Source of the DNA: an uncultured Rikenellaceae bacterium
GTDB taxonomy: Bacteria; Bacteroidota; Bacteroidia; Bacteroidales; VadinHA17
Direction of reading: 5' to 3'
DNA length: 64,000 nucleotides
Assembly (NCBI GenBank): GCA_964429295.1
Contig: CAYSBL010000001.1
Location: 178,528-242,527 of the forward strand
Below, piece after piece: positions 39,204 to 49,107 of the stretch. Made by a program: the position numbers and the translations under genes. The notes under the pieces are model-generated. The model searched no databases. It saw nothing but the letters and a program-made list of their open reading frames with translations, and was not told the origin of the DNA. The stretch's first letter is position 1, and each line of letters starts with the position of its first letter.

Positions 39204-39217
39204 CCCCCTTTAGGGGG
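39204..39217. other. G/C hairpin CCCCC-TTTA-GGGGG between convergent genes, overlapping the GH88 stop codon
   Basis: 5-bp GC stem with a 4-nt loop, followed by a second GGGGG run. The last codons of GH88 (LPPAP-stop) are encoded by this element. There is no flanking U-run. Confidence 0.35.
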
Positions 39218-40406
39218 CAGGGGGTAACATGCCTTTGAACCTCATCATCGCTTCTATGAAATAGTAATCACCGTATGTCAGCGGTACATCAACCTCGCTG
39301 TTTCCCGGCAAATGCCCCACCCCGTGCTTCAGTATGAAATTACCATTCTCCCCTTCCCCTGCCCTGTATTCAGGTGACGAAAGGGTTCTGATCTGTTTTT
39401 CTGCAACTGCAAGATACTCTGCTGACTTTCCTGCTTCAGCATACCGGCTGAGTTCAATAAGAGCCGAAGCCATGATGGCCCCGGCCGAAGCATCTCTCTT
39501 TGCCTCCGGAATACCGGGAGCATTGAAATCCCAGTAAGGAATTCCGTCGGCCGGAAAATTCGGATGACCTATAAGGAAATCGGCAATCTTCACAGCCTGG
39601 TCAAGATATCTTTCCAGGCCTGTTTCCCTGTACATTACAGTGTATCCATACAAGCCCCAGACCTGTCCGCGCGCCCATGCCGACTCATCAGCCGCACCCT
39701 GATGCGTCTGCCTGGCCTCCACCTTTCCTGAAATCGTATCATACGAAACAACATGGTATGAGCTGTTGTCTGTCCTGAAATGGTTCTTTATGGTGGTGTC
39801 CGAATGAGTCACAGCAATCCTGTAGAAGGAGGAATCGCCTGAATGGTTGAATGCCCATAGCAGCAGTTCAAGGTTCATCATATTGTCGATAATAACCGGA
39901 CATTGCCAGCCTTGCCGGCTTCCCCACGACTGAATGCAGCCGATATTCGGTCTGAACCGGGTGCTTAGGGACCTGGCACCGGTCATAAGTACTTCATTGT
40001 AGCTCTCCTCTCCGGTCAGCCGCAATCCGTTCCCGAAACTGCAGAACAACATGAAACCCAAATCGTGAGTGCCCTTGTTGTACTTCTCATTTTCGATTCT
40101 TGCAGTCATTTCGGTTGCAGCAACCTTGAACTTCTCATCCCCGGTATATTCATACAGATACCACAAACTCCCGGGGAAAAATCCGCTTGTCCACCAACCC
40201 GGCCCGGCGGTAACAAATTCACCCTTCTCGTTCAGCGTTCTGGGCAGCTGACCGGGCTTTTCCTTCATCACATCATTCATAAGTAAATACTGCTGAGCCG
40301 AAAAGACAAGCGATTCATCAATCACTTTTCCGATTGGTTTTTCCTTTGCACACGAGTAAAGTATAACCGAAATAACCATTCCGGCAGTGATAAGTCTCAT
40401 TTTCAT
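39210..40406 (-). CDS. Glycoside hydrolase family 88 (unsaturated glucuronyl/galacturonyl hydrolase) lipoprotein
   Basis: 398 aa with a lipoprotein signal (GMVISVILYSC). It has the alpha/alpha-barrel motifs typical of GH88 (WWTSGFFPGSLWYLY, HDLGFM, GLYGY). Confidence 0.8.
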   Translation of the reverse strand: MKMRLITAGMVISVILYSCAKEKPIGKVIDESLVFSAQQYLLMNDVMKEKPGQLPRTLNEKGEFVTAGPGWWTSGFFPGSLWYLYEYTGDEKFKVAATEMTARIENEKYNKGTHDLGFMLFCSFGNGLRLTGEESYNEVLMTGARSLSTRFRPNIGCIQSWGSRQGWQCPVIIDNMMNLELLLWAFNHSGDSSFYRIAVTHSDTTIKNHFRTDNSSYHVVSYDTISGKVEARQTHQGAADESAWARGQVWGLYGYTVMYRETGLERYLDQAVKIADFLIGHPNFPADGIPYWDFNAPGIPEAKRDASAGAIMASALIELSRYAEAGKSAEYLAVAEKQIRTLSSPEYRAGEGENGNFILKHGVGHLPGNSEVDVPLTYGDYYFIEAMMRFKGMLPPAP

Positions 40407-40555: not shown

Positions 40556-41488
40556 ATGAAGAAAAAATACGTCCTTGCCGCAGTCCTGCTGACGGCTTTC
40601 GTTGCCGCTCCGGCACAGAATGTTGGTTCAACACCCGAATACATAAAAGCCCTGACCTCCGAATGGAAGGGAGAACGTTTCACCGATGGAAGACCAAAGG
40701 TTCCGGATGCCATACTCGAAAGACTGAAAAATATTTCCATTGAGGAAGCCTGGGGAGTCCTTCGCAACCGGGGCTATAATAATCAGTTTGAAAGCGAATG
40801 GCAGATCATACACCCTGACGAACCTATGACCGGCCGGGTGGTTACGGCACAGTATATGCCACTTCGTCCCGATCTCGAAAAATACGTAAAGGAAAAGGGC
40901 AAAGCCGAAAACCGGGCCCAGCAGGGCGGTACCAATTCCTGGCCCATAGATGTTCTGACCGACGGTGATGTATATGTTGCCGACAGCTATGGCAAAATCG
41001 TCGACGGGACTCTTATCGGTGACAACCTGGGTAACTCTATCTATGCAAAATCAAAGAGGGGAGTCATATTCTACGGATCGGTAAGGGACCAGGAAGGACT
41101 TGAAGAAATAAAGGGATTCAATGGCTGGATAAAGGGCAATGATCCCTCTTATATAACCCAGATGAGCCTCGTTTCCATAAATGCTCCCATCCGCGTTGGA
41201 AGAGCCGTGGTACTACCTGGTGATGTGGTACTTGCCAAGAAATTCGGAGTAATATTCATACCCGCGCACCTCGTTGAGGAACTGGTAATTACCGCCGAGG
41301 TCACAGCCCTCAGGGATGAGTTCGGCCACCTGCGGTTAAGGGAAGGAAAATACAAACCGGGACAGATCGACAGCCAGTGGACTGAAGAGATACGTAAAGA
41401 TTTCATGAACTGGCTCAATAATTACCCCGGAAAACTGCCCATGACCAAAACTGAGCTTGATAATTACTTCAGGGAAAGGAACTGGTGA
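40556..41488 (+). CDS. RraA-family (HMG/CHA-aldolase / demethylmenaquinone-methyltransferase-like fold) protein with a Sec signal peptide
   Basis: Signal MKKKYVLAAVLLTAFVAAPAQ. The core GDVYVADSYGK...GTLIGDNLG...GVIFYGSVRD fits the RraA-like fold. At 310 aa it is longer than cytoplasmic RraA. Confidence 0.65.
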   Translation: MKKKYVLAAVLLTAFVAAPAQNVGSTPEYIKALTSEWKGERFTDGRPKVPDAILERLKNISIEEAWGVLRNRGYNNQFESEWQIIHPDEPMTGRVVTAQYMPLRPDLEKYVKEKGKAENRAQQGGTNSWPIDVLTDGDVYVADSYGKIVDGTLIGDNLGNSIYAKSKRGVIFYGSVRDQEGLEEIKGFNGWIKGNDPSYITQMSLVSINAPIRVGRAVVLPGDVVLAKKFGVIFIPAHLVEELVITAEVTALRDEFGHLRLREGKYKPGQIDSQWTEEIRKDFMNWLNNYPGKLPMTKTELDNYFRERNW

Positions 41489-41511
41489 GGCGCAAATTGT
41501 CAGGGGAAAGG

Positions 41512-41543
41512 GGTTGCTTCGTCCTTCGGGACTCGCAATGACT
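41512..41543. repeat. Short structured intergenic element, copy 1 (GGTTGCTTCG-GTCCTTCGGGAC-TCGCAATGAC)
   Basis: Shares its terminal arms (GGTTGCTTCG / CTCGCAATGAC) with the inverted copy at 44056-44087. The internal mini-hairpin is GTCC-TTCG-GGAC. Confidence 0.6.
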
Positions 41544-41584
41544 GTGCAAAGATTGAGGATCAGACAGAGATAAAAAAATAATTA

Positions 41585-42991
41585 ATGAATATGAAAAACA
41601 TAGACAGACGCAATTTCATCAGGAAAAGTGCCCTGGGGGGCATTGCCCTCGGAGGATTAATGCACTTGTCCCTGGAAGACACATTAGCACAGACTACCTC
41701 TAAGGTGAACCGTGCTTCCAGTCCGTCCGACCTGAAGATAACTGACATGCGGGTCGCAGTTGTCGGAAACGTAGGTAGAACAGCGATAATCAGAATCGAC
41801 ACCAATCAGGGCATCTATGGGCTTGGGGAGGTCAGGGACGGAGCTGATGAAAGATATGCGCTGATGCTTAAGAGCAGGATTCTGGGCCTTAATCCCTGCA
41901 ATGTCGAAATGATTTTCAAGATAATCAGGCAATATGGCTACCATGGCCGGCAGGGCGGAGGGGTATGTGCTGTCGAGATGGCTCTCTGGGATCTCTGCGG
42001 CAAAGCCTACGGCGTGCCTGCGTGGCAGCTGCTGGGCGGAAGATACAGGGACAAAATAAGACTGTATGCCGACACTCCGGGAGCCAATGATCCTGTAGCC
42101 TTCGCCGCAACAATGAGAAAACGTGTTGAAGAACAGGGCTTCACCTGGCTCAAAATGGACCTCGGTATCCATGTGGTGGCCAAACAGCCCGACTCGCTTG
42201 TAAACAACAAATTCTGGGACGGAGCAGTGGGCCAGTACGACCTCAGAACCTACATGGGCTACGGCAATACCCTTCATCCCTTCACTCAGGTGCAGATAAC
42301 CGACAAGGGTCTGGAGGGACTTGCAGAATACGTTGAACAGGTAAGAAATGCAGTAGGATATGAAATGCCTCTCTGTGCCGACCACTTCGGGCACTTTGAT
42401 ATAAACAACTCTATCCGTTTCGGCAGGGCTATGGAGAAATACAGGCTCGCCTGGCTCGAGGATATGGTTCCGTGGTTTTATACCGAACAATGGAGAACTG
42501 TTTCCGATGCACTCGAAACTCCGACATGCACGGGCGAAGACATCTATATGCTCAACGGCGGATTCAAACCGCTTCTCGACGCACGCGCAGTTGACATAAT
42601 CCATCCCGACCTTGCTACATCCGGTGGACTTCTCGAAACCAAACGAATCGGTGACTATGCTGAAGAATGCGGTGTGGCCATGGCCATGCACATGGCTGGA
42701 ACGCCGGTCTGCTTCATGGCAAATGTGCATTGTGCTGCTGCCACCCAGAACTTCCTTGCACTGGAGCATCACAGCGTGGACTCGCCATGGTGGGAAAACC
42801 TGGTAAGGATGACCGGATCACAGCCGATGGTAACAAAAGGCTTTGCAAACGTGCCGCTTGATTCTCCGGGCCTCGGAATAGAATTAAACGAGGAAGAAGT
42901 GAAAAAGCACCTGCATCCGAGGGCAAAGGGATTCTTTGAACCTACCCCGGAATGGGACGACAAGCGCTCGCACGACAGGCTCTGGAGTTAG
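41585..42991 (+). CDS. Enolase-superfamily enzyme (mandelate racemase/muconate-lactonizing family, sugar-acid dehydratase-like) with a twin-arginine signal
   Basis: TAT signal NIDRRNFIRKSALGGIALGGLM...TLAQ. Metal and acid/base contexts are WLKMDLG, CADHFGH, LAWLEDM, TGEDIY and HPDLATSGG. 468 aa. Confidence 0.75.
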   Translation: MNMKNIDRRNFIRKSALGGIALGGLMHLSLEDTLAQTTSKVNRASSPSDLKITDMRVAVVGNVGRTAIIRIDTNQGIYGLGEVRDGADERYALMLKSRILGLNPCNVEMIFKIIRQYGYHGRQGGGVCAVEMALWDLCGKAYGVPAWQLLGGRYRDKIRLYADTPGANDPVAFAATMRKRVEEQGFTWLKMDLGIHVVAKQPDSLVNNKFWDGAVGQYDLRTYMGYGNTLHPFTQVQITDKGLEGLAEYVEQVRNAVGYEMPLCADHFGHFDINNSIRFGRAMEKYRLAWLEDMVPWFYTEQWRTVSDALETPTCTGEDIYMLNGGFKPLLDARAVDIIHPDLATSGGLLETKRIGDYAEECGVAMAMHMAGTPVCFMANVHCAAATQNFLALEHHSVDSPWWENLVRMTGSQPMVTKGFANVPLDSPGLGIELNEEEVKKHLHPRAKGFFEPTPEWDDKRSHDRLWS

Positions 42992-44019
42992 CGAACTACC
43001 CTGCCTGACGCATCACCTTTCATAAGCTGCTCGACCTCCGCAACCGAAACGAGGTTAAAGTCGCCATGTATAGTGTGCTTCAGGCATGATGCGGCTACTG
43101 CAAAATGAAGGGCTTTCCGGTCATCGCCCTGATAGGCATTCAGACCGTAAATAAGACCACCCATAAATGAATCGCCTCCGCCAACCCTGTCGACTATGTG
43201 GGTTATCTGGTAAACCGGCGCTTCATACAAGGTTGTGCCGTCAAACAAAACCCCAGACCAGGTGTTATGATCGGCATTTATCGATCCGCGTAGGGTGATG
43301 ATCACCTTTTTTGCATTCGGAAACCGCAACATCAGCTGCCTGCATACCGATTCATAATCGGAAGCTTCTACCCTGCCCCCCATGACATCAGCTGATCCGG
43401 GCTTTATTCCGAAAACCTTTTCCGCATCCTCTTCATTTCCGAGGATAATGTCACATCCCGAAACAAGCCCGGGCATAACCTCGCCTGCCTTTTTACCCCA
43501 CTTCCACAGGTTCTTCCTGTAATTAAGGTCGCAGGATACGGTGATCCCTTTCTTCCTTGCCGTACTGATTGCCGTAAGGCACTCCTCTGCAGCTCCCTCT
43601 GATATCGCAGGTGTAATGCCTGTCCAGTGAAACCATCCGGCTCCTTCCAGGACATTTTCCCAGTCTATCATACCAGCTTCGATCTCGGCAATTGATGAAT
43701 GTGCACGGTCATAAATTACCTTGCTTGGCCTGGCTACCGAACCTGTCTCAAGAAAATATATTCCGACCCTGCTCCCTCCTCTGATAATATGGGAAGTCCC
43801 AACATTGTGCCTCCGAAGTTCCCTGACTGCAGCTTCCCCAATATCGTTAAGAGGCAAACGTGTCACAAACTCTGCATTCATTCCGAAATTTGCCAGTGAG
43901 ACCGCCACATTCGCCTCTCCTCCACCGAATGAAGCACAGTATGAATCAGCCTGTGTGAAACGCTGGTGCCCGGGCGTTGCAAGCCTTAACATGATCTCTC
44001 CAAACGTAATGATTTTCAT
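42988..44019 (-). CDS. kdgK: 2-dehydro-3-deoxygluconokinase (PfkB family)
   Basis: 343 aa with the N-terminal FGEIMLRL...FGGGEANVA motif and the C-terminal GGGDSFMGGLIYG motif, as in KdgK. Its stop overlaps the convergent enolase-family stop (TTAG). Confidence 0.8.
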   Translation of the reverse strand: MKIITFGEIMLRLATPGHQRFTQADSYCASFGGGEANVAVSLANFGMNAEFVTRLPLNDIGEAAVRELRRHNVGTSHIIRGGSRVGIYFLETGSVARPSKVIYDRAHSSIAEIEAGMIDWENVLEGAGWFHWTGITPAISEGAAEECLTAISTARKKGITVSCDLNYRKNLWKWGKKAGEVMPGLVSGCDIILGNEEDAEKVFGIKPGSADVMGGRVEASDYESVCRQLMLRFPNAKKVIITLRGSINADHNTWSGVLFDGTTLYEAPVYQITHIVDRVGGGDSFMGGLIYGLNAYQGDDRKALHFAVAASCLKHTIHGDFNLVSVAEVEQLMKGDASGRVVR

Positions 44020-44055: not shown

Positions 44056-44087
44056 GTCATTGCGAGGCCCGCTGGGCCGAAGCAACC
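44056..44087. repeat. Short structured intergenic element, copy 2 (inverted: GTCATTGCGAG-GCCCGCTGGGCC-GAAGCAACC)
   Basis: The arms match the reverse complement of copy 1. The internal mini-hairpin has a different sequence but the same shape (GGCCC-GCT-GGGCC). The element supplies the last ~10 codons and the stop of the transporter ORF (VASAQRASQ-stop). Confidence 0.6.
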
Positions 44088-45358
44088 TCATCCTTCACCG
44101 GCCTCCCCCTCCACCAGTTCGCCAGCACCGATCCCGTAACATTCATCAATGGACCGAATATGGCAGGCGCAAGACCTACTGTGGCAAGCTTCCCCATCTG
44201 GTTTGCCAGTCCCGAAGCCAGACCACCGTTCTGCATTCCCACCTCAAAGGCAATAGTCCTCCGGTCTTTCTCCGGCATCCTGAGCAGCCATGCAAGCAGG
44301 TAACCAACAGTGTAACCCGTCAGGTTGTGAAGTATACTGGTGCAGACAAGCAGAATTCCAACACTCATCAGGCTGTCACGTCCCGAAGCTGTGATCACCG
44401 CTACTATGAGTGCTATTCCCACCATCGACACCATCGACAGTATCTTCTCCATGATCTTCTTGTCGCCCCCGAAAGCCTTCAGAAACAAAGTACCTCCTGC
44501 CATAGGCAGCAGATAGAAAATAAGAAGCATTTTTATCAGTTGAATTATGAACTGGGAAAGACTGGCATCCTTTGCCTTTACATAAACCAATCCTGTAAGT
44601 ATCATCACCAAAGGATAAATAATGAGCTGTATAAGCTTCGACCTGCCTGTTGCTTCCCTCTTCAGGAAGAGGTTGAAAATGAATCCGGCAACAATTGGAA
44701 GGATTATCATGTTGAGTATATCGAGCATCATGCTCCAGAAATCAATATCGATGAACTGACCAGCCAGTTTCTCCATAAGAAGCGGAGTCAGCAGGGGTGA
44801 AAGCAGTGTCGTAATTGCTGCCAGCGTAACTGCAAGAGGCACATTTGCACGGGCAAGGAACGACATCACATTGGATGCAAGACCGCTAGGAACACAACCG
44901 ATAAGTATTATCCCGGCTGCGATCTCAGGAGGAAAACTGAAAATATTGGCAATACCAAGGGCGACCAGCGGCATGATGGAGAACTGGGCTATCACCCCTA
45001 TTATCACCCCTTTCGGCATTTTGATAATGCCTGCAAAATCGTTGAAGCTCATCTGCGATCCCATTCCGAACATTATCAGCTGCAGAAGCGGGGTGATTAG
45101 CCTGCTCAGTTTAAAGCTACCGATCTGGGTAAGGTACTGGGGATAAAACATACTTACAACTACGGCAGTGAAAATCCATAGGGTATACGACAATCCCCTG
45201 AACCGGCTGGATCCCCTCACCCCCGTCGCCAGGGCAACAAAGCCGCCTATAAGCAGCCATCCCATCAGGGTGATCTTCCCGAGAAAATAAGAGATAATGG
45301 ATGAGATAATGAGCAGCGCTGAAAGTATCAGCAACAGTGAATAAACATTCTTCTTCAT
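44057..45358 (-). CDS. Bile-acid:sodium symporter (BASS/SBF-like) family transporter
   Basis: 433 aa and polytopic. MFGMGSQMSFNDF...GVIAQFSIMPL and a second repeat, CVPSGLASNVM, are typical of the SBF fold. Confidence 0.65.
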   Translation of the reverse strand: MKKNVYSLLLILSALLIISSIISYFLGKITLMGWLLIGGFVALATGVRGSSRFRGLSYTLWIFTAVVVSMFYPQYLTQIGSFKLSRLITPLLQLIMFGMGSQMSFNDFAGIIKMPKGVIIGVIAQFSIMPLVALGIANIFSFPPEIAAGIILIGCVPSGLASNVMSFLARANVPLAVTLAAITTLLSPLLTPLLMEKLAGQFIDIDFWSMMLDILNMIILPIVAGFIFNLFLKREATGRSKLIQLIIYPLVMILTGLVYVKAKDASLSQFIIQLIKMLLIFYLLPMAGGTLFLKAFGGDKKIMEKILSMVSMVGIALIVAVITASGRDSLMSVGILLVCTSILHNLTGYTVGYLLAWLLRMPEKDRRTIAFEVGMQNGGLASGLANQMGKLATVGLAPAIFGPLMNVTGSVLANWWRGRPVKDEVASAQRASQ

Positions 45359-45525: not shown

Positions 45526-46428
45526 ATGGGCAGAATCGTTGTAATCGGAAGCACCAATACCGACATGGTGGTAAAGTCGAAAAAGATCCCGGCACCGGGA
45601 GAAACCATCATCGGAGGTACTTTTTTCATGAATCCGGGTGGTAAAGGCGCCAACCAGGCAGTGGCTGCCGCCCGCCTGAACGGGAAAGTCACCCTGGTAA
45701 CAAAGACCGGCAACGATTACTTCAGCGAACAGGCAAAACATATCTTTGATTTTGAAGGAATTGAAACAAAATATTTGGTCAATGATCCAAGAAATCCATC
45801 GGGTATCGCTCTGATTATGGTTGATCAGGACGGAGAGAACTGCATAGTGGTCGCACCAGGATCCAATGGCACACTGTCAGCTTATGACATTGATGATGAG
45901 GTCTATGGAGATGATCCCTCCGATGTCTACCTGATGCAGCTTGAGATACCGGTAAGCACTGTTGAATTCGTGGCCGAAAGGGTTTCCACAAAAGGTAACA
46001 GGGTTATTCTTAATCCTGCTCCTGTTAAACAGCTTTCAAACGAATTACTGAAATGTCTCTATATTATAACTCCCAATGAGATTGAAGCTGAATTGCTGAC
46101 AGGCATCAAGGTCACCGACGCTTCATCTGCTGAAAAATGCGCTGAAAAACTCAGGGCGCGGGGACCGCGAAATGTCATAATAACGATGGGGGCCGCCGGC
46201 GCTTACCTGCTTACCGACAATATATCAAGGATTATCCCGGTGATCCCCGTCAAGGCACTCGATACAACGGCAGCAGGGGACGTGTTCAACGGGGCCCTTG
46301 CAGTTGCCATTTGTGAAGGCCGTGACCTTACTGATGCAGTCAGGTTTGCCAACAAAGCCGCCGCAATTTCGGTTACACGGATGGGAGCCCAGTCTTCTGC
46401 CCCCTACCGGAAAGAGATCGATTTATAG
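45526..46428 (+). CDS. rbsK: Ribokinase
   Basis: 300 aa with VVIGSTNTDMV, NPGGKGANQAVAAARL and the C-terminal DTTAAGDVFNGALAV motif. Confidence 0.85.
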   Translation: MGRIVVIGSTNTDMVVKSKKIPAPGETIIGGTFFMNPGGKGANQAVAAARLNGKVTLVTKTGNDYFSEQAKHIFDFEGIETKYLVNDPRNPSGIALIMVDQDGENCIVVAPGSNGTLSAYDIDDEVYGDDPSDVYLMQLEIPVSTVEFVAERVSTKGNRVILNPAPVKQLSNELLKCLYIITPNEIEAELLTGIKVTDASSAEKCAEKLRARGPRNVIITMGAAGAYLLTDNISRIIPVIPVKALDTTAAGDVFNGALAVAICEGRDLTDAVRFANKAAAISVTRMGAQSSAPYRKEIDL

Positions 46429-46471
46429 TACTGATATTCAGTTATTTACTTTTATTACAATTGATACTCAA

Positions 46472-47473
46472 ATGAAAAGCCTCGTGTACTTAGTGTCCCT
46501 TTCAGTCCTGATCATTGCAAGCTGCTCCGGCCAGAATTCAGGGAAAGTCACTGAACCGGTAAAAATCATTTTCGACACCGACCTTGGTCCCGACTATGAT
46601 GACGTGGGAGCCCTTGCTTTCCTTCACGCCATGGCCGACAGCGGGAAAGCTGAGATCCTGGCCACCTTATCATCCAACAAACACGAACTGGTTGCACCCT
46701 CAATTGATGTGATAAACACATGGTTCAACAGACCGGACCTTCCGACAGGTGCTCCTGCAAGTGAAGGACCAAACCTTGGTTCATCGCAACACTGGGCCGA
46801 CTCGATCGTTGCTGCCTATCCTCACGACATAAAATCAACTTCCGAAGCTGAAGATGCAGTGAGGATATACAGGAAAATACTTGCCGGACAGCCCGACAAC
46901 AGTGTAACAATAATAACAGTGGGATTCCTGACCAACCTTAATAACCTGCTCCGGTCGGGCCCGGATGAGTTCAGCCCGCTTTCCGGAAGCGGACTTATCG
47001 GCGCTAAAGTGTCCTTGCTGGTCTCCATGGCAGGAAGCTTTCCGGAAGGAAGGGAATTCAACGTTTACATAGATTCGCTTGCTTCGAAACAAGTTTTTGA
47101 AAACTGGCCCGGTGAAGTGATTTTCACAGGCTTCGAGATAGGAAGAGAGATCCTTACAGGCCTCAGAGTGATGGAAATGCCTGTCAGCAGCAGTCCCGTA
47201 AAGGATGTCTTCAGGATCTCCATCCCGATGTCAGAAGAAGATAAAAACGGCCGCATGAGCTGGGACGAAACCGCAGTGCTAATTGCCGTATACGGCACCG
47301 AGGGTTTCTTCGACACCAGGAGGGGAACCATCCTCGTCGAAAGTTCCGGAAGCAACAAATGGCAGGATGATCCTGAAGGAAAACACCAGTTTGTGATTCA
47401 AAAGATGCCCGTACCTGATATGGCACGTTTCATCGAGGACAGAATGATGCATGTACCTGCCGACAAGAAATGA
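46472..47473 (+). CDS. Inosine-uridine-preferring nucleoside hydrolase-family lipoprotein
   Basis: Lipoprotein signal MKSLVYLVSLSVLIIASC, then IIFDTDLGPDYDDVGALAFL (the DxDxxxDD Ca-binding motif of IUNH). The 58 upstream codons in the track overlap rbsK and are rejected. Confidence 0.75.
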   Translation: MKSLVYLVSLSVLIIASCSGQNSGKVTEPVKIIFDTDLGPDYDDVGALAFLHAMADSGKAEILATLSSNKHELVAPSIDVINTWFNRPDLPTGAPASEGPNLGSSQHWADSIVAAYPHDIKSTSEAEDAVRIYRKILAGQPDNSVTIITVGFLTNLNNLLRSGPDEFSPLSGSGLIGAKVSLLVSMAGSFPEGREFNVYIDSLASKQVFENWPGEVIFTGFEIGREILTGLRVMEMPVSSSPVKDVFRISIPMSEEDKNGRMSWDETAVLIAVYGTEGFFDTRRGTILVESSGSNKWQDDPEGKHQFVIQKMPVPDMARFIEDRMMHVPADKK

Positions 47474-49107
47474 TTTTAATAAATAAAATAATGAGATACA
47501 GACACTTCCACATCCTGACTTCAGTGCTGCTCATCACACTGAGTTCCTGCTCCGGTCCAGGTGACCTGACACCAGTAAAGACAAATGTTCTCAAGGATAA
47601 GATTGCCGGAGGCTGGGCCGGAAAAATGATAGGCGTCACTTATGGAGCGCCAACCGAGTTCAGGGCACAGGGCCGCACCTACGAGGATTCTATTAAATGG
47701 AAACCTTCCGATATAAGGGGCAGCCTCTGGCAGGACGATATTTATGTGCAGCTCTCTTTTCTCATGGCAATGGACAAATACGGGATGGATGCTCCTTCAA
47801 AAAAGTTCCAGGAGATGTTTGCCCTTGCCGGTTTTCCGCTGTGGCACGCCAACATGCAGGCCAGGAAAAACTTCCACGACAGCATCTTCGCACCACTCTC
47901 GGGAAGCCCCGAATATAACCTCCATGCCGATGACATCGATTTCCAGATAGAATCCGACTATATCGGCTTCATGTGTCCGGGTATGCCAGCCACTGCCTCG
48001 GCGATAGCCGACAGGATCGGACGTATCATGAACTATGGCGATGGTGTCTACGGCGGAATTTTCGTAGCCGCTCTTTACTCCGAAGCCTTTTTTGAATCAG
48101 ATATCCGGCTGATAATTGAAAAAGCACTTTTGTCAATACCGAGCGAAAGCGACTATCACAAGGCAATAAGCGATGTACTCATACTCCACGACCGGTACCC
48201 GGGTGACTGGCGGGCTGCCTGGATGCAACTGGAGGGGAAATGGGGAGATGTGGATATCTGCGGCGCTGGCTCACCATTCAATATCGATGCCAAACTGAAC
48301 GGGGCCTATATTGCCATGGGGCTTTTGTACGGAGAAGGCGATCCGCTGAAAACACTTGAGATATCAACACGCTGCGGACAGGACTCCGACTGCAATCCGT
48401 CAAATGCGATGGCGGTGCTTGGCGTAATTAACGGGTTCAGCGGATTGCCTGCTGAAATGCAGGAAGGGATCAGGGCAATCGCCGATTCAACATTCATCCA
48501 TACTTCATATTCCTTTAATTCCGCCGTCGGATCTACATACAAATATGCTGTCGAACTGGCAGGCAGGTCGGGGGGTAAGATCAAAGGAAACAAGATCCTT
48601 ATAAAAAGGGAAGAACCGGTTGCCCCTGAGCTGGAAATATCATTCCCTGATCTGGTCTATGACCGAAAAATATCTGTGTTTGACAATGACGGATGGAAAT
48701 TCCGCGGGAAATGGGATGTACACAAGCCGGAATCCGCACGTACAAATCAGCGCCGGGGACAATCGATGGTTTCGGGTAACGCCGGTGATGAACTGACAAT
48801 TAAGTTTTCAGGAAGCGGGATCTCTCTCGAGGGCAACTGGTATCGCGACGGAGGACGGGCCGATGTATTCCTCGACGGAAATTATCACCGTACAATAGAT
48901 ACATATTACGACTATGCAGGCCAGCAGCATACTGAAAGCATCTGGCATGCCGTAAACCTCTCACCTGGTGATCACACTGTCAGACTGGTCGTTAAGGGCG
49001 AAAAAAGAAATGAATCAGCCGGAACAAATGTTTATGTTGTTTCGGCTACCATTTTCAGAAACGACCGGAAAAAGAATGAAACACACAACTTCAGCTTCAA
49101 ACAATAG
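47470..49107 (+). CDS. ADP-ribosylglycohydrolase-family protein with a signal/lipobox and an extra C-terminal beta-rich (carbohydrate-binding-like) domain
   Basis: Lipobox LITLSSC. ARH-fold motifs are GGWAGKMIGVTYGAPTEF, WQDDIYV and GQDSDCNPSNA. The C-terminal ~170 aa (GISLEGNWYRDGGRADVFLDGNY...GDHTVRLVV) resembles a CBM/galactose-binding-like module. The start is either 47470 (ATGA overlap) or 47491. Confidence 0.7.
   Translation: MILINKIMRYRHFHILTSVLLITLSSCSGPGDLTPVKTNVLKDKIAGGWAGKMIGVTYGAPTEFRAQGRTYEDSIKWKPSDIRGSLWQDDIYVQLSFLMAMDKYGMDAPSKKFQEMFALAGFPLWHANMQARKNFHDSIFAPLSGSPEYNLHADDIDFQIESDYIGFMCPGMPATASAIADRIGRIMNYGDGVYGGIFVAALYSEAFFESDIRLIIEKALLSIPSESDYHKAISDVLILHDRYPGDWRAAWMQLEGKWGDVDICGAGSPFNIDAKLNGAYIAMGLLYGEGDPLKTLEISTRCGQDSDCNPSNAMAVLGVINGFSGLPAEMQEGIRAIADSTFIHTSYSFNSAVGSTYKYAVELAGRSGGKIKGNKILIKREEPVAPELEISFPDLVYDRKISVFDNDGWKFRGKWDVHKPESARTNQRRGQSMVSGNAGDELTIKFSGSGISLEGNWYRDGGRADVFLDGNYHRTIDTYYDYAGQQHTESIWHAVNLSPGDHTVRLVVKGEKRNESAGTNVYVVSATIFRNDRKKNETHNFSFKQ

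Follow-up and report, generated by a model that had tools for sequence, protein, structure and literature searches.

The subject of this report is a pair of neighbouring genes in a 64,000-nucleotide stretch of DNA (hereafter the window) from contig CAYSBL010000001.1 of an uncultured Rikenellaceae bacterium (phylum Bacteroidota), which are predicted to encode two exported enzymes of sugar-acid breakdown. The first gene (positions 40556-41488, plus strand) encodes a 310-residue RraA-like protein with the HMG/CHA-aldolase fold (Pfam PF03737), the first 20 residues of which (40556-40615) form a predicted Sec signal peptide for signal peptidase I (SPase I), with the cut expected between A20 and Q21. 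After an intergenic spacer of 96 nt (41489-41584), which as read from the sequence holds a G+C-rich hairpin-forming element, follows on the same strand the gene (41585-42991) for a 468-residue enzyme of the enolase superfamily (MR/MLE type; Pfam MR_MLE_N and MR_MLE_C), hereafter called the dehydratase. This enzyme is GalD/ManD-like, belongs to a family with a DHFGH motif and is predicted to be exported by the twin-arginine (Tat) route, its signal peptide (residues 1-35; 41585-41689) containing the string R8-R9-N-F-I-R-K, a hydrophobic h-region and a predicted cut between A35 and Q36. Convergent with the pair lies a minus-strand operon, in which the gene for a BASS/SBF-family Na+-coupled transporter (44057-45358) is followed downstream by a co-oriented gene for a KdgK-type 2-keto-3-deoxy-sugar-acid kinase (42988-44019). 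On the other flank lies a divergent minus-strand gene for a GH88-like lipoprotein (39210-40406), which is not part of the conserved module described below.

A first-pass annotation had placed the two genes at these positions, had read their leaders as a Sec and a twin-arginine signal, respectively, and had named the GH88, kdgK and BASS genes as the flanks. Both plus-strand open reading frames (ORFs) were indeed found at those coordinates with the lengths and leader types given above, and the flanks agreed with Pfam and NCBIfam matches. The transporter matched Pfam SBF (E 3.6e-36) while staying below the cut-offs of the NCBIfam bass and PanS (ketopantoate/pantoate transporter) models, the kinase matched PfkB (E 2.7e-30) and the kinase half of a KHG/KDPG aldolase-kinase fusion model (506.6 bits), and the GH88-like neighbour, a predicted exported lipoprotein with the lipobox LYSC, matched Pfam GH88 weakly (29.2 bits at a cut-off of 26.6). 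Each gene of the pair occurs as a single copy in its own genome, which also encodes TatC (PF00902; 226.5 bits, contig C37) and, elsewhere, Eda (contig C27).

For comparison we used three sets of 80 loci each. The main set, collected with the dehydratase as query, consisted of Bacteroidota loci with 121 enolase-family ORFs inside, the second contained loci with a leaderless RraA-like gene (Clostridia, Paenibacillus, Bacillus and Treponema), and the third came from queries with divergent exported RraA-like proteins (a five-sequence alignment) and comprised 65 loci, mostly from Acidobacteriota with a few others, together with 15 further Bacteroidota loci. Because ORF calling in the high-G+C Firmicutes and Acidobacteriota loci gave spurious antisense ORFs, neighbour counts there are lower bounds, and presence or absence of the pair in those sets was judged by tblastn. 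Co-occurrence was determined in a separate, evenly drawn sample of 201 Bacteroidota genomes, with thresholds of E <= 1e-40 for the RraA-like protein and E <= 1e-60 for the dehydratase.

The export signals were assigned by direct reading of the N-termini and by conservation among homologues, not by a trained predictor. The RraA-like protein starts with MKKKYVLAAVLLTAFVAAPA, followed at the predicted cut by QNVGS; this leader has a positively charged n-region, a 15-residue hydrophobic core and a site of the A-x-A type, lacks Cys, and thus reads as a Sec signal for SPase I. All full-length RraA-like homologues likewise displayed a basic n-region, a hydrophobic core and an A-Q-type site, and 68 of the 75 RraA-like ORFs passed a hydrophobicity test, the remainder being truncated or over-extended ORFs. 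The sequence of this leader drifts while its type persists, and tblastn matches usually start at residue 21, as expected of a signal peptide. Gln21, the predicted first mature residue, did not vary among 24 sequences with 45-86% identity. Both proteins of the pair have a Gln next to the predicted cut, a pattern described for SPase I substrates of Bacteroidota.

The dehydratase starts with MNMKNIDRRNFIRKSALGGIALGGLMHLSLEDTLA, followed by QTTS, and here the string D-R-R-N-F-I-R-K precedes the hydrophobic stretch SALGGIALGGL and a TLA sequence at the predicted cut before Q. R8, R9, F11, K14 and the hydrophobic stretch were invariant in eight homologues of 84-93% identity, and RRxF[LI]K together with a hydrophobic region was found in nearly all of the 121 enolase-family ORFs, including distant paralogues, with the exceptions being ORFs cut by a contig end, mis-called starts, or twin-arginine variants such as RREAMK. 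Along with the A-Q site, these features were kept across paralogues of 25-97% identity and across two phyla. The Firmicutes and Treponema orthologues of both proteins, in turn, begin exactly at the mature part, without a leader, which we consider the strongest argument that the N-terminal segments of the window proteins would be real export signals.

This conservation bears on the possibility that the N-terminal segments do not function in export, or act as mere membrane anchors, so that the enzymes would reside in or at the cytoplasm. Such a reading could draw on the score of the dehydratase leader on the NCBIfam Tat-signal hidden Markov model TIGR01409, which at 16.6 bits is borderline, just under the cut-off of 16.7, and on the leaders being known from sequence alone. 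Against it stand the conserved twin-arginine motif, hydrophobic region and A-Q site, the physico-chemical pattern that the Sec leader keeps despite its drift, and the absence of both segments from the Gram-positive orthologues. Genes neighbouring the pair in the Bacteroidota loci moreover include those of exported or outer-membrane proteins, and the Acidobacteriota neighbours whose N-termini were read carry leaders such as NRRSILKSSLGLLAGGA. We therefore give this possibility hardly any credence. The export signals named by the first-pass annotation thus appear conserved in silico, across paralogues as well as across phyla, and both proteins are probably periplasmic.

With regard to the dehydratase leader, most homologues are 492-496 residues long and have a conserved, charged, helix-like n-region of about 30-35 residues (type MKSILQQIAEK..EKAEAEAI.AEI.NP) before the two arginines, whereas the window gene has only seven residues there. 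The hairpin-forming element of the spacer sits where the ancestral n-region would be expected, as if an insertion had replaced it. The dehydratase gene also contains a 362-residue antisense ORF (41684-42772, minus strand), the conservation of which follows the sense gene and which is most likely spurious.

The first-pass annotation had made joint conservation of the two genes a condition of its idea, and strong co-conservation was indeed found. In 64 of the 80 dehydratase loci an RraA homologue was present, in most cases 50-350 nt upstream, with certain lineages having it immediately downstream; in six of the other 16 loci the contig ends upstream and leaves no room for it. In the sample of 201 Bacteroidota genomes, the RraA-like gene was found in seven and the dehydratase in five, and all five dehydratase genomes had the RraA-like gene adjacent and on the same strand. 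As each gene occurs at a frequency of only about 3%, joint presence in five out of five cannot be due to chance.

The two genes also seem to have diversified together. Several Cytophagales hold two or three pairs, in which distinct RraA subtypes stand beside distinct dehydratase subtypes. Using 70 adjacent pairs, the partner-wise pairwise identities were found to correlate with r = 0.75, and when partners were swapped within ten multi-pair loci, every swap lowered r, to a mean of 0.53 after swapping. These sequence comparisons indicate that paralogous pairs co-diversify. Six tandem Tat-leader dehydratase paralogues were observed behind SusC/SusD in Adhaeribacter aquaticus DSM 16391 (L077, 7896-17380), and a similar array was seen in another locus (L079, 577-9386); no RraA-like gene was found within the flanks of these two loci. 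For an apparently exported enzyme family this is a striking case of local expansion.

The pair is not confined to Bacteroidota. The leaderless RraA-like genes of the Firmicutes and Treponema set are 38-47% identical to the window protein, and 41 of these 80 loci carry a dehydratase orthologue (45-50% identity, with no Tat leader) within 8 kb, often adjacent. Divergent exported RraA-like genes, with about 50% identity to the window protein, have Acidobacteriaceae, Bryobacteraceae and Terriglobia among their carriers; an enolase-family gene was detected by tblastn in 50 of the 80 loci of that set, and in many Acidobacteriota loci a true dehydratase orthologue (49-53% identity) lies beside the RraA-like gene. 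Judged from these distributions, the pair appears to be an old functional couple, which two Gram-negative phyla would export and Gram-positives keep in the cytoplasm. In the literature we found no account of a Tat-exported enolase-superfamily enzyme, of an exported RraA-like protein or of the gene pair, with full-text coverage being thin for subscription journals.

We next consider the catalytic make-up of the two proteins. The dehydratase matched MR_MLE_C (PF13378; E 8.9e-45, 153.5 bits, cut-off 29.4) and MR_MLE_N (PF02746; E 5.5e-10, 39.9 bits, cut-off 22), and had 96 relatives in the PDB at E <= 1e-10, the best being an uncharacterised Rubrobacter protein (2qq6, E 2.3e-58). Its best curated NCBIfam models were those of galactonate, mannonate and gluconate dehydratases, all at scores below the cut-off: 171.3 bits on the GalD/DgoD model NF010624 (cut-off 311, with the match mainly in the C-terminal half) and 155.3 bits on the ManD model NF043051 (cut-off 550). 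The glucarate dehydratase model gave only 20.8 bits. The enzyme thus belongs to neither the GalD nor the ManD equivalogs.

In an alignment with Escherichia coli DgoD and RspA, residues D266/E292/E318 of the window enzyme coincided with D183/E209/E235 of DgoD, and D342/H369 with D258/H285, which in DgoD we take to be the metal ligands and the base dyad, respectively. The metal triad, placed at the ends of barrel strands 3, 4 and 5 and made a touchstone of its idea by the first-pass annotation, was invariant in the family alignments (A1 and A6), as was the putative dyad within the dehydratase family, and the strand-6 Asp was kept, unlike in RspA. The position of DgoD H185, presumably the general acid, is however taken by F268, so that the D-x-H arrangement is replaced by the family motif DH[FYLMC]GH, found in 90 of 120 Bacteroidota, 19 of 27 Firmicutes and 15 Acidobacteriota members. 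From its residues, the enzyme should be a competent catalyst of the enolase superfamily, of GalD type on the base side and differently arranged on the acid side. The subgroup assignment as ManD, GalD or GlucD that had been envisaged could not be upheld, as all curated cut-offs were missed and the general-acid His of GalD is absent.

The RraA-like protein matched Pfam PF03737 (E 2.1e-15, 57.7 bits, cut-off 24.5), with PRK08245 (NF006093) as its best NCBIfam model at 98.9 bits, below the cut-off of 208. Scores on the HMG/CHA aldolase models TIGR02798 and NF006731 (54.2 and 54.1 bits) also stayed well under the cut-offs of 304.5 and 179. The window protein has extensions at both ends, giving 310 residues compared to about 160 for the regulator RraA. 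An AlphaFold2 model built from 24 sequences had a predicted local distance difference test score (pLDDT) of 85.1 and a predicted template modelling score (pTM) of 0.81, and a Foldseek search with it ranked 3NOJ (E 2.7e-13), 5IR2, RraAS2 (5X15), 3K4I and yeast YER010C at the top, all of them RraA-fold proteins, with the short RraA proteins lower. D156/R177/D178/D254 aligned with D102/R123/D124/E199 of 3NOJ, which are reportedly (Wang et al. 2010) the catalytic Arg-Asp pair and the acidic metal-water ligands. Among the 24 diverse homologues (45-86% identity), R177, D178 and D254 were invariant and D156 nearly so. Two regions had no counterpart in the Foldseek-matched structures, namely a conserved segment at the mature N-terminus, LTxEWxGERxxDGRPKV, and the C-terminal extension. 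The subfamily is compact, since only 168 clusters at E <= 1e-30 were found among 1.84 billion representative proteins, leaderless forms included.

These residues speak to whether the RraA-like protein could, much as RraA binds RNase E, serve the dehydratase as an inhibitor, chaperone or scaffold without any catalysis of its own. The family is named after that protein-binding regulator, and the tight adjacency and co-diversification of the two genes would fit a physical complex equally well. Yet the residues expected to bind metal and substrate are conserved, the window protein scored only 28.4 bits on the RNase E regulator model NF006875 (cut-off 136), and the characterised long-form relatives, HMG/CHA aldolase and FlDet, are enzymes. 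A purely non-catalytic role thus seems highly improbable.

Some chimeric forms of the RraA-like protein were also observed, with an N-terminal DUF1080-like domain and signal peptide (P0245), an SDR (P0284), the C-terminal part of a GH2 beta-glucuronidase-like enzyme (P0285) or an N-terminal fragment of the partner dehydratase (P0379), although errors of assembly or gene calling may account for some of these fusions.

The closest characterised relative of the RraA-like protein, as judged by sequence, is FlDet of Flavobacterium sp. UMI-01, a 237-residue cytoplasmic RraA-family enzyme with the sequenced N-terminus Met-Thr-Thr, described as a 2-keto-3-deoxy-D-glucarate dehydratase/decarboxylase by Nishiyama et al. 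2021 (PMC8563752). With Mg2+, Co2+ or Ni2+ as activator, the enzyme acts specifically on 2-keto-3-deoxy-D-glucarate and forms alpha-ketoglutarate semialdehyde from it (PMC8563752). Using the FlDet sequence from the supplement of that paper, BLASTP gave 27% identity over 236 residues (E 7e-15) with the window protein, and both proteins had PRK08245 as the best model, FlDet at 341.1 bits. The window protein would therefore represent a sister group of the FlDet family, lying below its cut-off. The first-pass annotation had likened the RraA-like protein to the class II pyruvate aldolases, a label that found no support, as FlDet is no aldolase and the protein falls outside both the FlDet and the HMG/CHA aldolase families.

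Turning to the gene neighbourhoods, SusD was encoded directly upstream of the pair in 18 of the 80 Bacteroidota loci, and SusC/SusD were co-oriented within three genes in 21-22 of them. The BASS gene adjoined the pair in 14 of 80 loci and was within three genes in 27, with tblastn revealing it near the pair also in nine of the 15 further Bacteroidota loci. A galactonate-transporter-type MFS gene was adjacent in 11 of 80, and either it or BASS in 25 of 80. These SusC/SusD and BASS/MFS partners, as well as the cytoplasmic Firmicutes form, lay beyond what the first-pass annotation could see.

Other recurrent partners in Bacteroidota were a DUF362 protein of about 590 residues with an N-terminal membrane hairpin (13 of 80 loci, sometimes on both sides of the pair; L010, L011, L015, L058 and others), a Tat-leader UxuA-type protein (nine loci), a DUF4440 lipoprotein (six loci) and Tat-leader oxidoreductases of the glucose-fructose oxidoreductase (GFO) family (five loci). 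The Tat-leader mannonate dehydratase of UxuA type (e.g. MKDNRRDFLKKGASLAAA; in L015, L020, L024, L041 and other Bacteroidota loci, and in 19 Acidobacteriota loci) scored 235 bits on PRK03906 (cut-off 191), and is a second, unrelated dehydratase fold that is apparently exported in the same loci. Neither a Tat-UxuA gene nor a DUF362 gene was found in the genome of the window when looked for. That genome does encode, on contig C8 (15629-16936), a Gfo/Idh/MocA oxidoreductase that shares 80% identity, along its whole length and with the leader counted, with the pair-linked Tat-leader GFO-family protein of other genomes, and tblastn gave 19 matches to this family in the genome.

In Acidobacteriota the partners were TonB-dependent receptors, Tat-UxuA-like proteins, a second Tat-leader ManD-like enolase and MFS carriers. 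The same loci (L162-L226) also contained pyrroloquinoline quinone (PQQ)-dependent dehydrogenases (11 loci), cytochrome c, DUF1080 proteins and a second, short exported RraA-like protein of 253 residues. These neighbours hint at periplasmic sugar oxidation that would feed the dehydratases.

The neighbourhoods did not support the uronate-related function that had been suggested, in which the pair would handle unsaturated uronates released by GH88 through dehydration followed by cleavage or tautomerisation, upstream of kdgK. That suggestion had its basis in the GH88-like lipoprotein gene, divergently adjacent, and in kdgK and BASS on the opposite side, and two Firmicutes loci (L137 and L143) likewise have a GH88 gene in the vicinity of the cytoplasmic pair. 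In the Bacteroidota set, however, GH88 adjoined the pair in only eight of 80 loci and came within three genes of it in 12; it was never co-oriented with the pair, was seen in close relatives only and was absent from the Cytophagales and Acidobacteriota forms. Conversion of 4-deoxy-5-keto-uronates to 2-keto-3-deoxygluconate (KDG) furthermore requires reduction with NAD(P)H, a cofactor that the periplasm is not expected to contain. We consequently reject the GH88 link as a conserved feature and consider a uronate pathway of this kind very unlikely.

Among Gram-positives, Paenibacillus showed the order SDR-SDR-dehydratase-RraA-AKR, with a UxuA homologue, an ABC sugar transporter and GntR and AraC regulators nearby; the SDRs are nearest to models of glucose or L-rhamnose 1-dehydrogenase, and the AKR to aldehyde (methylglyoxal) reductase. 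Clostridial loci add lactonases, of 6-phosphogluconolactonase-like and metallo-hydrolase types. Read together, these leaderless operons resemble a full non-phosphorylative route for aldoses, with dehydrogenase, lactonase, dehydratase, lyase and aldehyde reductase. All that remains in the exported versions are the two steps for which a divalent metal should suffice, in keeping with a compartment that lacks NAD and ATP.

Signatures of aldehyde dehydrogenase (ALDH) were found near the pair in none of 160 loci and in one of 65 Acidobacteriota loci, using PROSITE-type patterns on crude ORF calls, by which genes can be missed. This count is of importance for a variant of the Weimberg or aldarate pathways, in which the dehydratase would act on an aldarate or pentonate and the RraA-like protein would perform an FlDet-type step, that is a dehydration with, for aldarates, also decarboxylation, giving 2,5-dioxopentanoate (alpha-ketoglutarate semialdehyde) for import by BASS and cytoplasmic oxidation to 2-oxoglutarate. 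The position of FlDet as closest characterised relative, with the same best model, argues for this variant, as do the cofactor-free nature of both steps and a 2-oxo-acid product that would suit a BASS carrier. Arguing against it, in addition to the near absence of ALDH signatures, are the score of the window protein under the PRK08245 cut-off, the proximity of the dehydratase to aldonate models (GalD 171 and ManD 155 bits) and its distance from glucarate dehydratase, as well as the resemblance of the Firmicutes operons to aldose-to-aldonate routes. On balance we find it unlikely.

KdgK or Eda was encoded near the pair in all three phyla, and in four loci (L015, L058, L067 and L072) the order RraA-dehydratase-(DUF362)-(Tat-UxuA)-BASS-KdgK-Eda was found on one strand. 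An operon joining BASS, KdgK and Eda with the exported genes would suit an enolase-family enzyme that is an epimerase, racemase or cycloisomerase, or else an RraA-like protein that is a C4 epimerase working by reversible aldol cleavage, either of which could turn an unusual stereoisomer into KDG for uptake by BASS and use by KdgK and Eda. The replaced D-x-H general acid, with the DHFGH motif putting F268 at the place of DgoD H185, points in the same direction. However, H267 and H270, on either side of the lost His, could act as acid, no precedent for such an epimerase was found in the RraA family, and the aldehyde reductase of the Firmicutes operons fits cleavage better, for which reasons we regard an epimerase-like function as decidedly unlikely.

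Taken together, we favour the view that the two-gene pair is a conserved functional unit outside the cytoplasm, in which the dehydratase and the RraA-like enzyme would act in sequence on an acid sugar and the product would be imported; we put the probability of this reading at about 0.5. The dehydratase would fold in the cytoplasm, probably as a Mg2+-loaded oligomer, before Tat export and cleavage after Ala35, while the RraA-like enzyme would follow the Sec route and be cut after Ala20. In many relatives the substrate would be delivered by the SusC/SusD pair encoded directly upstream. In a first step, inferred from family chemistry and conserved residues, the His369-Asp342 base together with the metal bound by Asp266/Glu292/Glu318 would take the proton alpha to the carboxylate of the acid sugar, most likely an aldonate, whereupon the beta-hydroxyl would be eliminated and a 2-keto-3-deoxy acid released. 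In a second step, the RraA-like enzyme would bind this 2-oxo acid via a divalent metal (Asp178, Asp156 and Asp254) with Arg177 and act on it at C3-C4, with retro-aldol cleavage to pyruvate and an aldehyde being more likely than the alternative of an FlDet-type beta-elimination. Cleavage is favoured over elimination because the Firmicutes operons include an aldehyde reductase and because ALDH signatures were all but absent from the loci screened. The small 2-oxo-acid product would finally, as suggested by gene order, be taken up by the adjacent BASS symporter or, in relatives, by a galactonate-type MFS carrier, and then enter central metabolism, with KdgK as a possible cytoplasmic follow-up step and with Eda joining it in some lineages.

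Several observations weigh against this view. In about 10 of the 70 loci with upstream room, the dehydratase occurs without an RraA-like gene, and conversely a few loci of the divergent-RraA set have RraA and BASS without a dehydratase. No SusC/SusD match was found anywhere in the window, nor were these genes found beside the pair in its own genome. Neither protein reaches the cut-off of any curated family. The presence of F268 in place of the general-acid His of GalD suggests that the enolase-family enzyme may be no simple dehydratase, and the nearest known activity to that of the RraA-like protein would be, by sequence relationship, a dehydratase/decarboxylase acting on a 2-keto-3-deoxy acid, not an aldolase. 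A periplasmic aldolase would also leave the frequently linked KdgK and Eda without an obvious role; as cleavage does not explain this link, an epimerase or KDG-forming variant keeps some probability. Of the original proposal, the two-step periplasmic conversion of an acid sugar accordingly remains the best reading, while the uronate link, the aldolase label and the ManD/GalD/GlucD assignment found no support.

In a wider sense the pair, the predicted export signals of which recur in hundreds of further bacteria, points to an undescribed periplasmic step of sugar-acid breakdown. A bolder proposal, which we offer tentatively and would as a whole sooner bet against than for, is that Bacteroidota and Acidobacteriota run an entire stage of acid-sugar catabolism in the periplasm, with the pair of enolase-family and RraA-like enzymes as its conserved core. 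Substrates would then enter through SusC/SusD or TonB-dependent receptors, be oxidised in some lineages by Tat-exported GFO-type or PQQ dehydrogenases, be dehydrated by Tat-exported enzymes of two unrelated folds (enolase superfamily and UxuA) and be processed further by the exported RraA-like lyase, perhaps with the DUF362 and DUF4440 proteins, so that only small 2-oxo acids would cross the inner membrane via BASS or MFS carriers. The pair itself would in that case be a hitherto unrecognised dehydratase-lyase couple, of which Firmicutes have a cytoplasmic version.

Studies of enolase-superfamily acid-sugar dehydratases and of RraA-fold enzymes have so far treated them as cytoplasmic proteins. 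Should they work in the periplasm, sugar-acid catabolism of abundant soil, sediment and digester bacteria would be partly compartmentalised, unlike in textbook schemes, SusC/SusD loci without any glycoside hydrolase would be explained, and genome-based metabolic reconstructions would be assigning such steps to the wrong compartment. In addition, the pair delimits two uncharacterised enzyme families, namely the DHFGH-motif enolase family and a long-form RraA family with the N-terminal LTxEWxGER motif. Existing acid-sugar libraries could reveal their substrates, and among the carriers are cultured members of Mongoliibacter, Indibacter, Adhaeribacter, Pontibacter and Paenibacillus.

Beyond the BASS gene, the window also contains genes for a ribokinase, an exported nucleoside hydrolase (IUNH) and an exported ADP-ribosylglycohydrolase (ARH)-like protein in succession (45526-49107). 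This set recurs in the related loci (RbsK in 33 of 80, IUNH in 18 and ARH in 15), and it resembles ribose utilisation systems that have reportedly been described for Bacteroides (bioRxiv 10.1101/574913).

Among known systems, the DgoD/GalD/ManD group shares with the window dehydratase the two-domain fold, the metal triad and the His-Asp base dyad, and supplies the best-scoring curated models. DgoD is nonetheless only 25% identical to the window enzyme, has His185 where the latter has the Phe of DHFGH, differs from it by an insertion of about 50 residues between barrel strands 2 and 3, and is a cytoplasmic enzyme working with DgoK and DgoA, whereas the window enzyme has a Tat leader.

For the RraA-like protein, the HMG/CHA aldolase/oxaloacetate decarboxylase of Pseudomonas putida F1 (3NOJ) is alike in being the top Foldseek match and in the four aligned residues being kept, but it is only 21% identical, cytoplasmic, part of aromatic (protocatechuate) catabolism and without a dehydratase partner. 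FlDet is alike in its RraA fold, activation by divalent cations, use of a 2-keto-3-deoxy sugar acid and origin in Bacteroidota. It differs in having no signal peptide, in lacking both the 30-residue N-terminal segment with the LTxEWxGERxxDGRPKV motif and the 45-residue C-terminal extension of the window protein, and in being partnered by an SDR and an aldehyde dehydrogenase rather than by an enolase-superfamily enzyme.

Precedent for Tat export of normally cytoplasmic sugar enzymes is provided by the glucose-fructose oxidoreductase of Zymomonas mobilis and other Tat-exported Gfo/Idh/MocA enzymes; Tat-leader genes of that family also stand in the loci of some relatives, although the window enzyme differs from them in fold and chemistry. 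Among pathways, the non-phosphorylative ones of L-rhamnose and L-fucose type, which run through a sugar 1-dehydrogenase, a lactonase, an enolase-superfamily aldonate dehydratase and a class II pyruvate aldolase, follow a logic that recurs in the Firmicutes operons. The aldolase of those pathways is of the HpcH/HpaI family and not the RraA family, and the loci of Bacteroidota and Acidobacteriota differ from them further in keeping just the cofactor-free steps, now equipped with predicted export signals.

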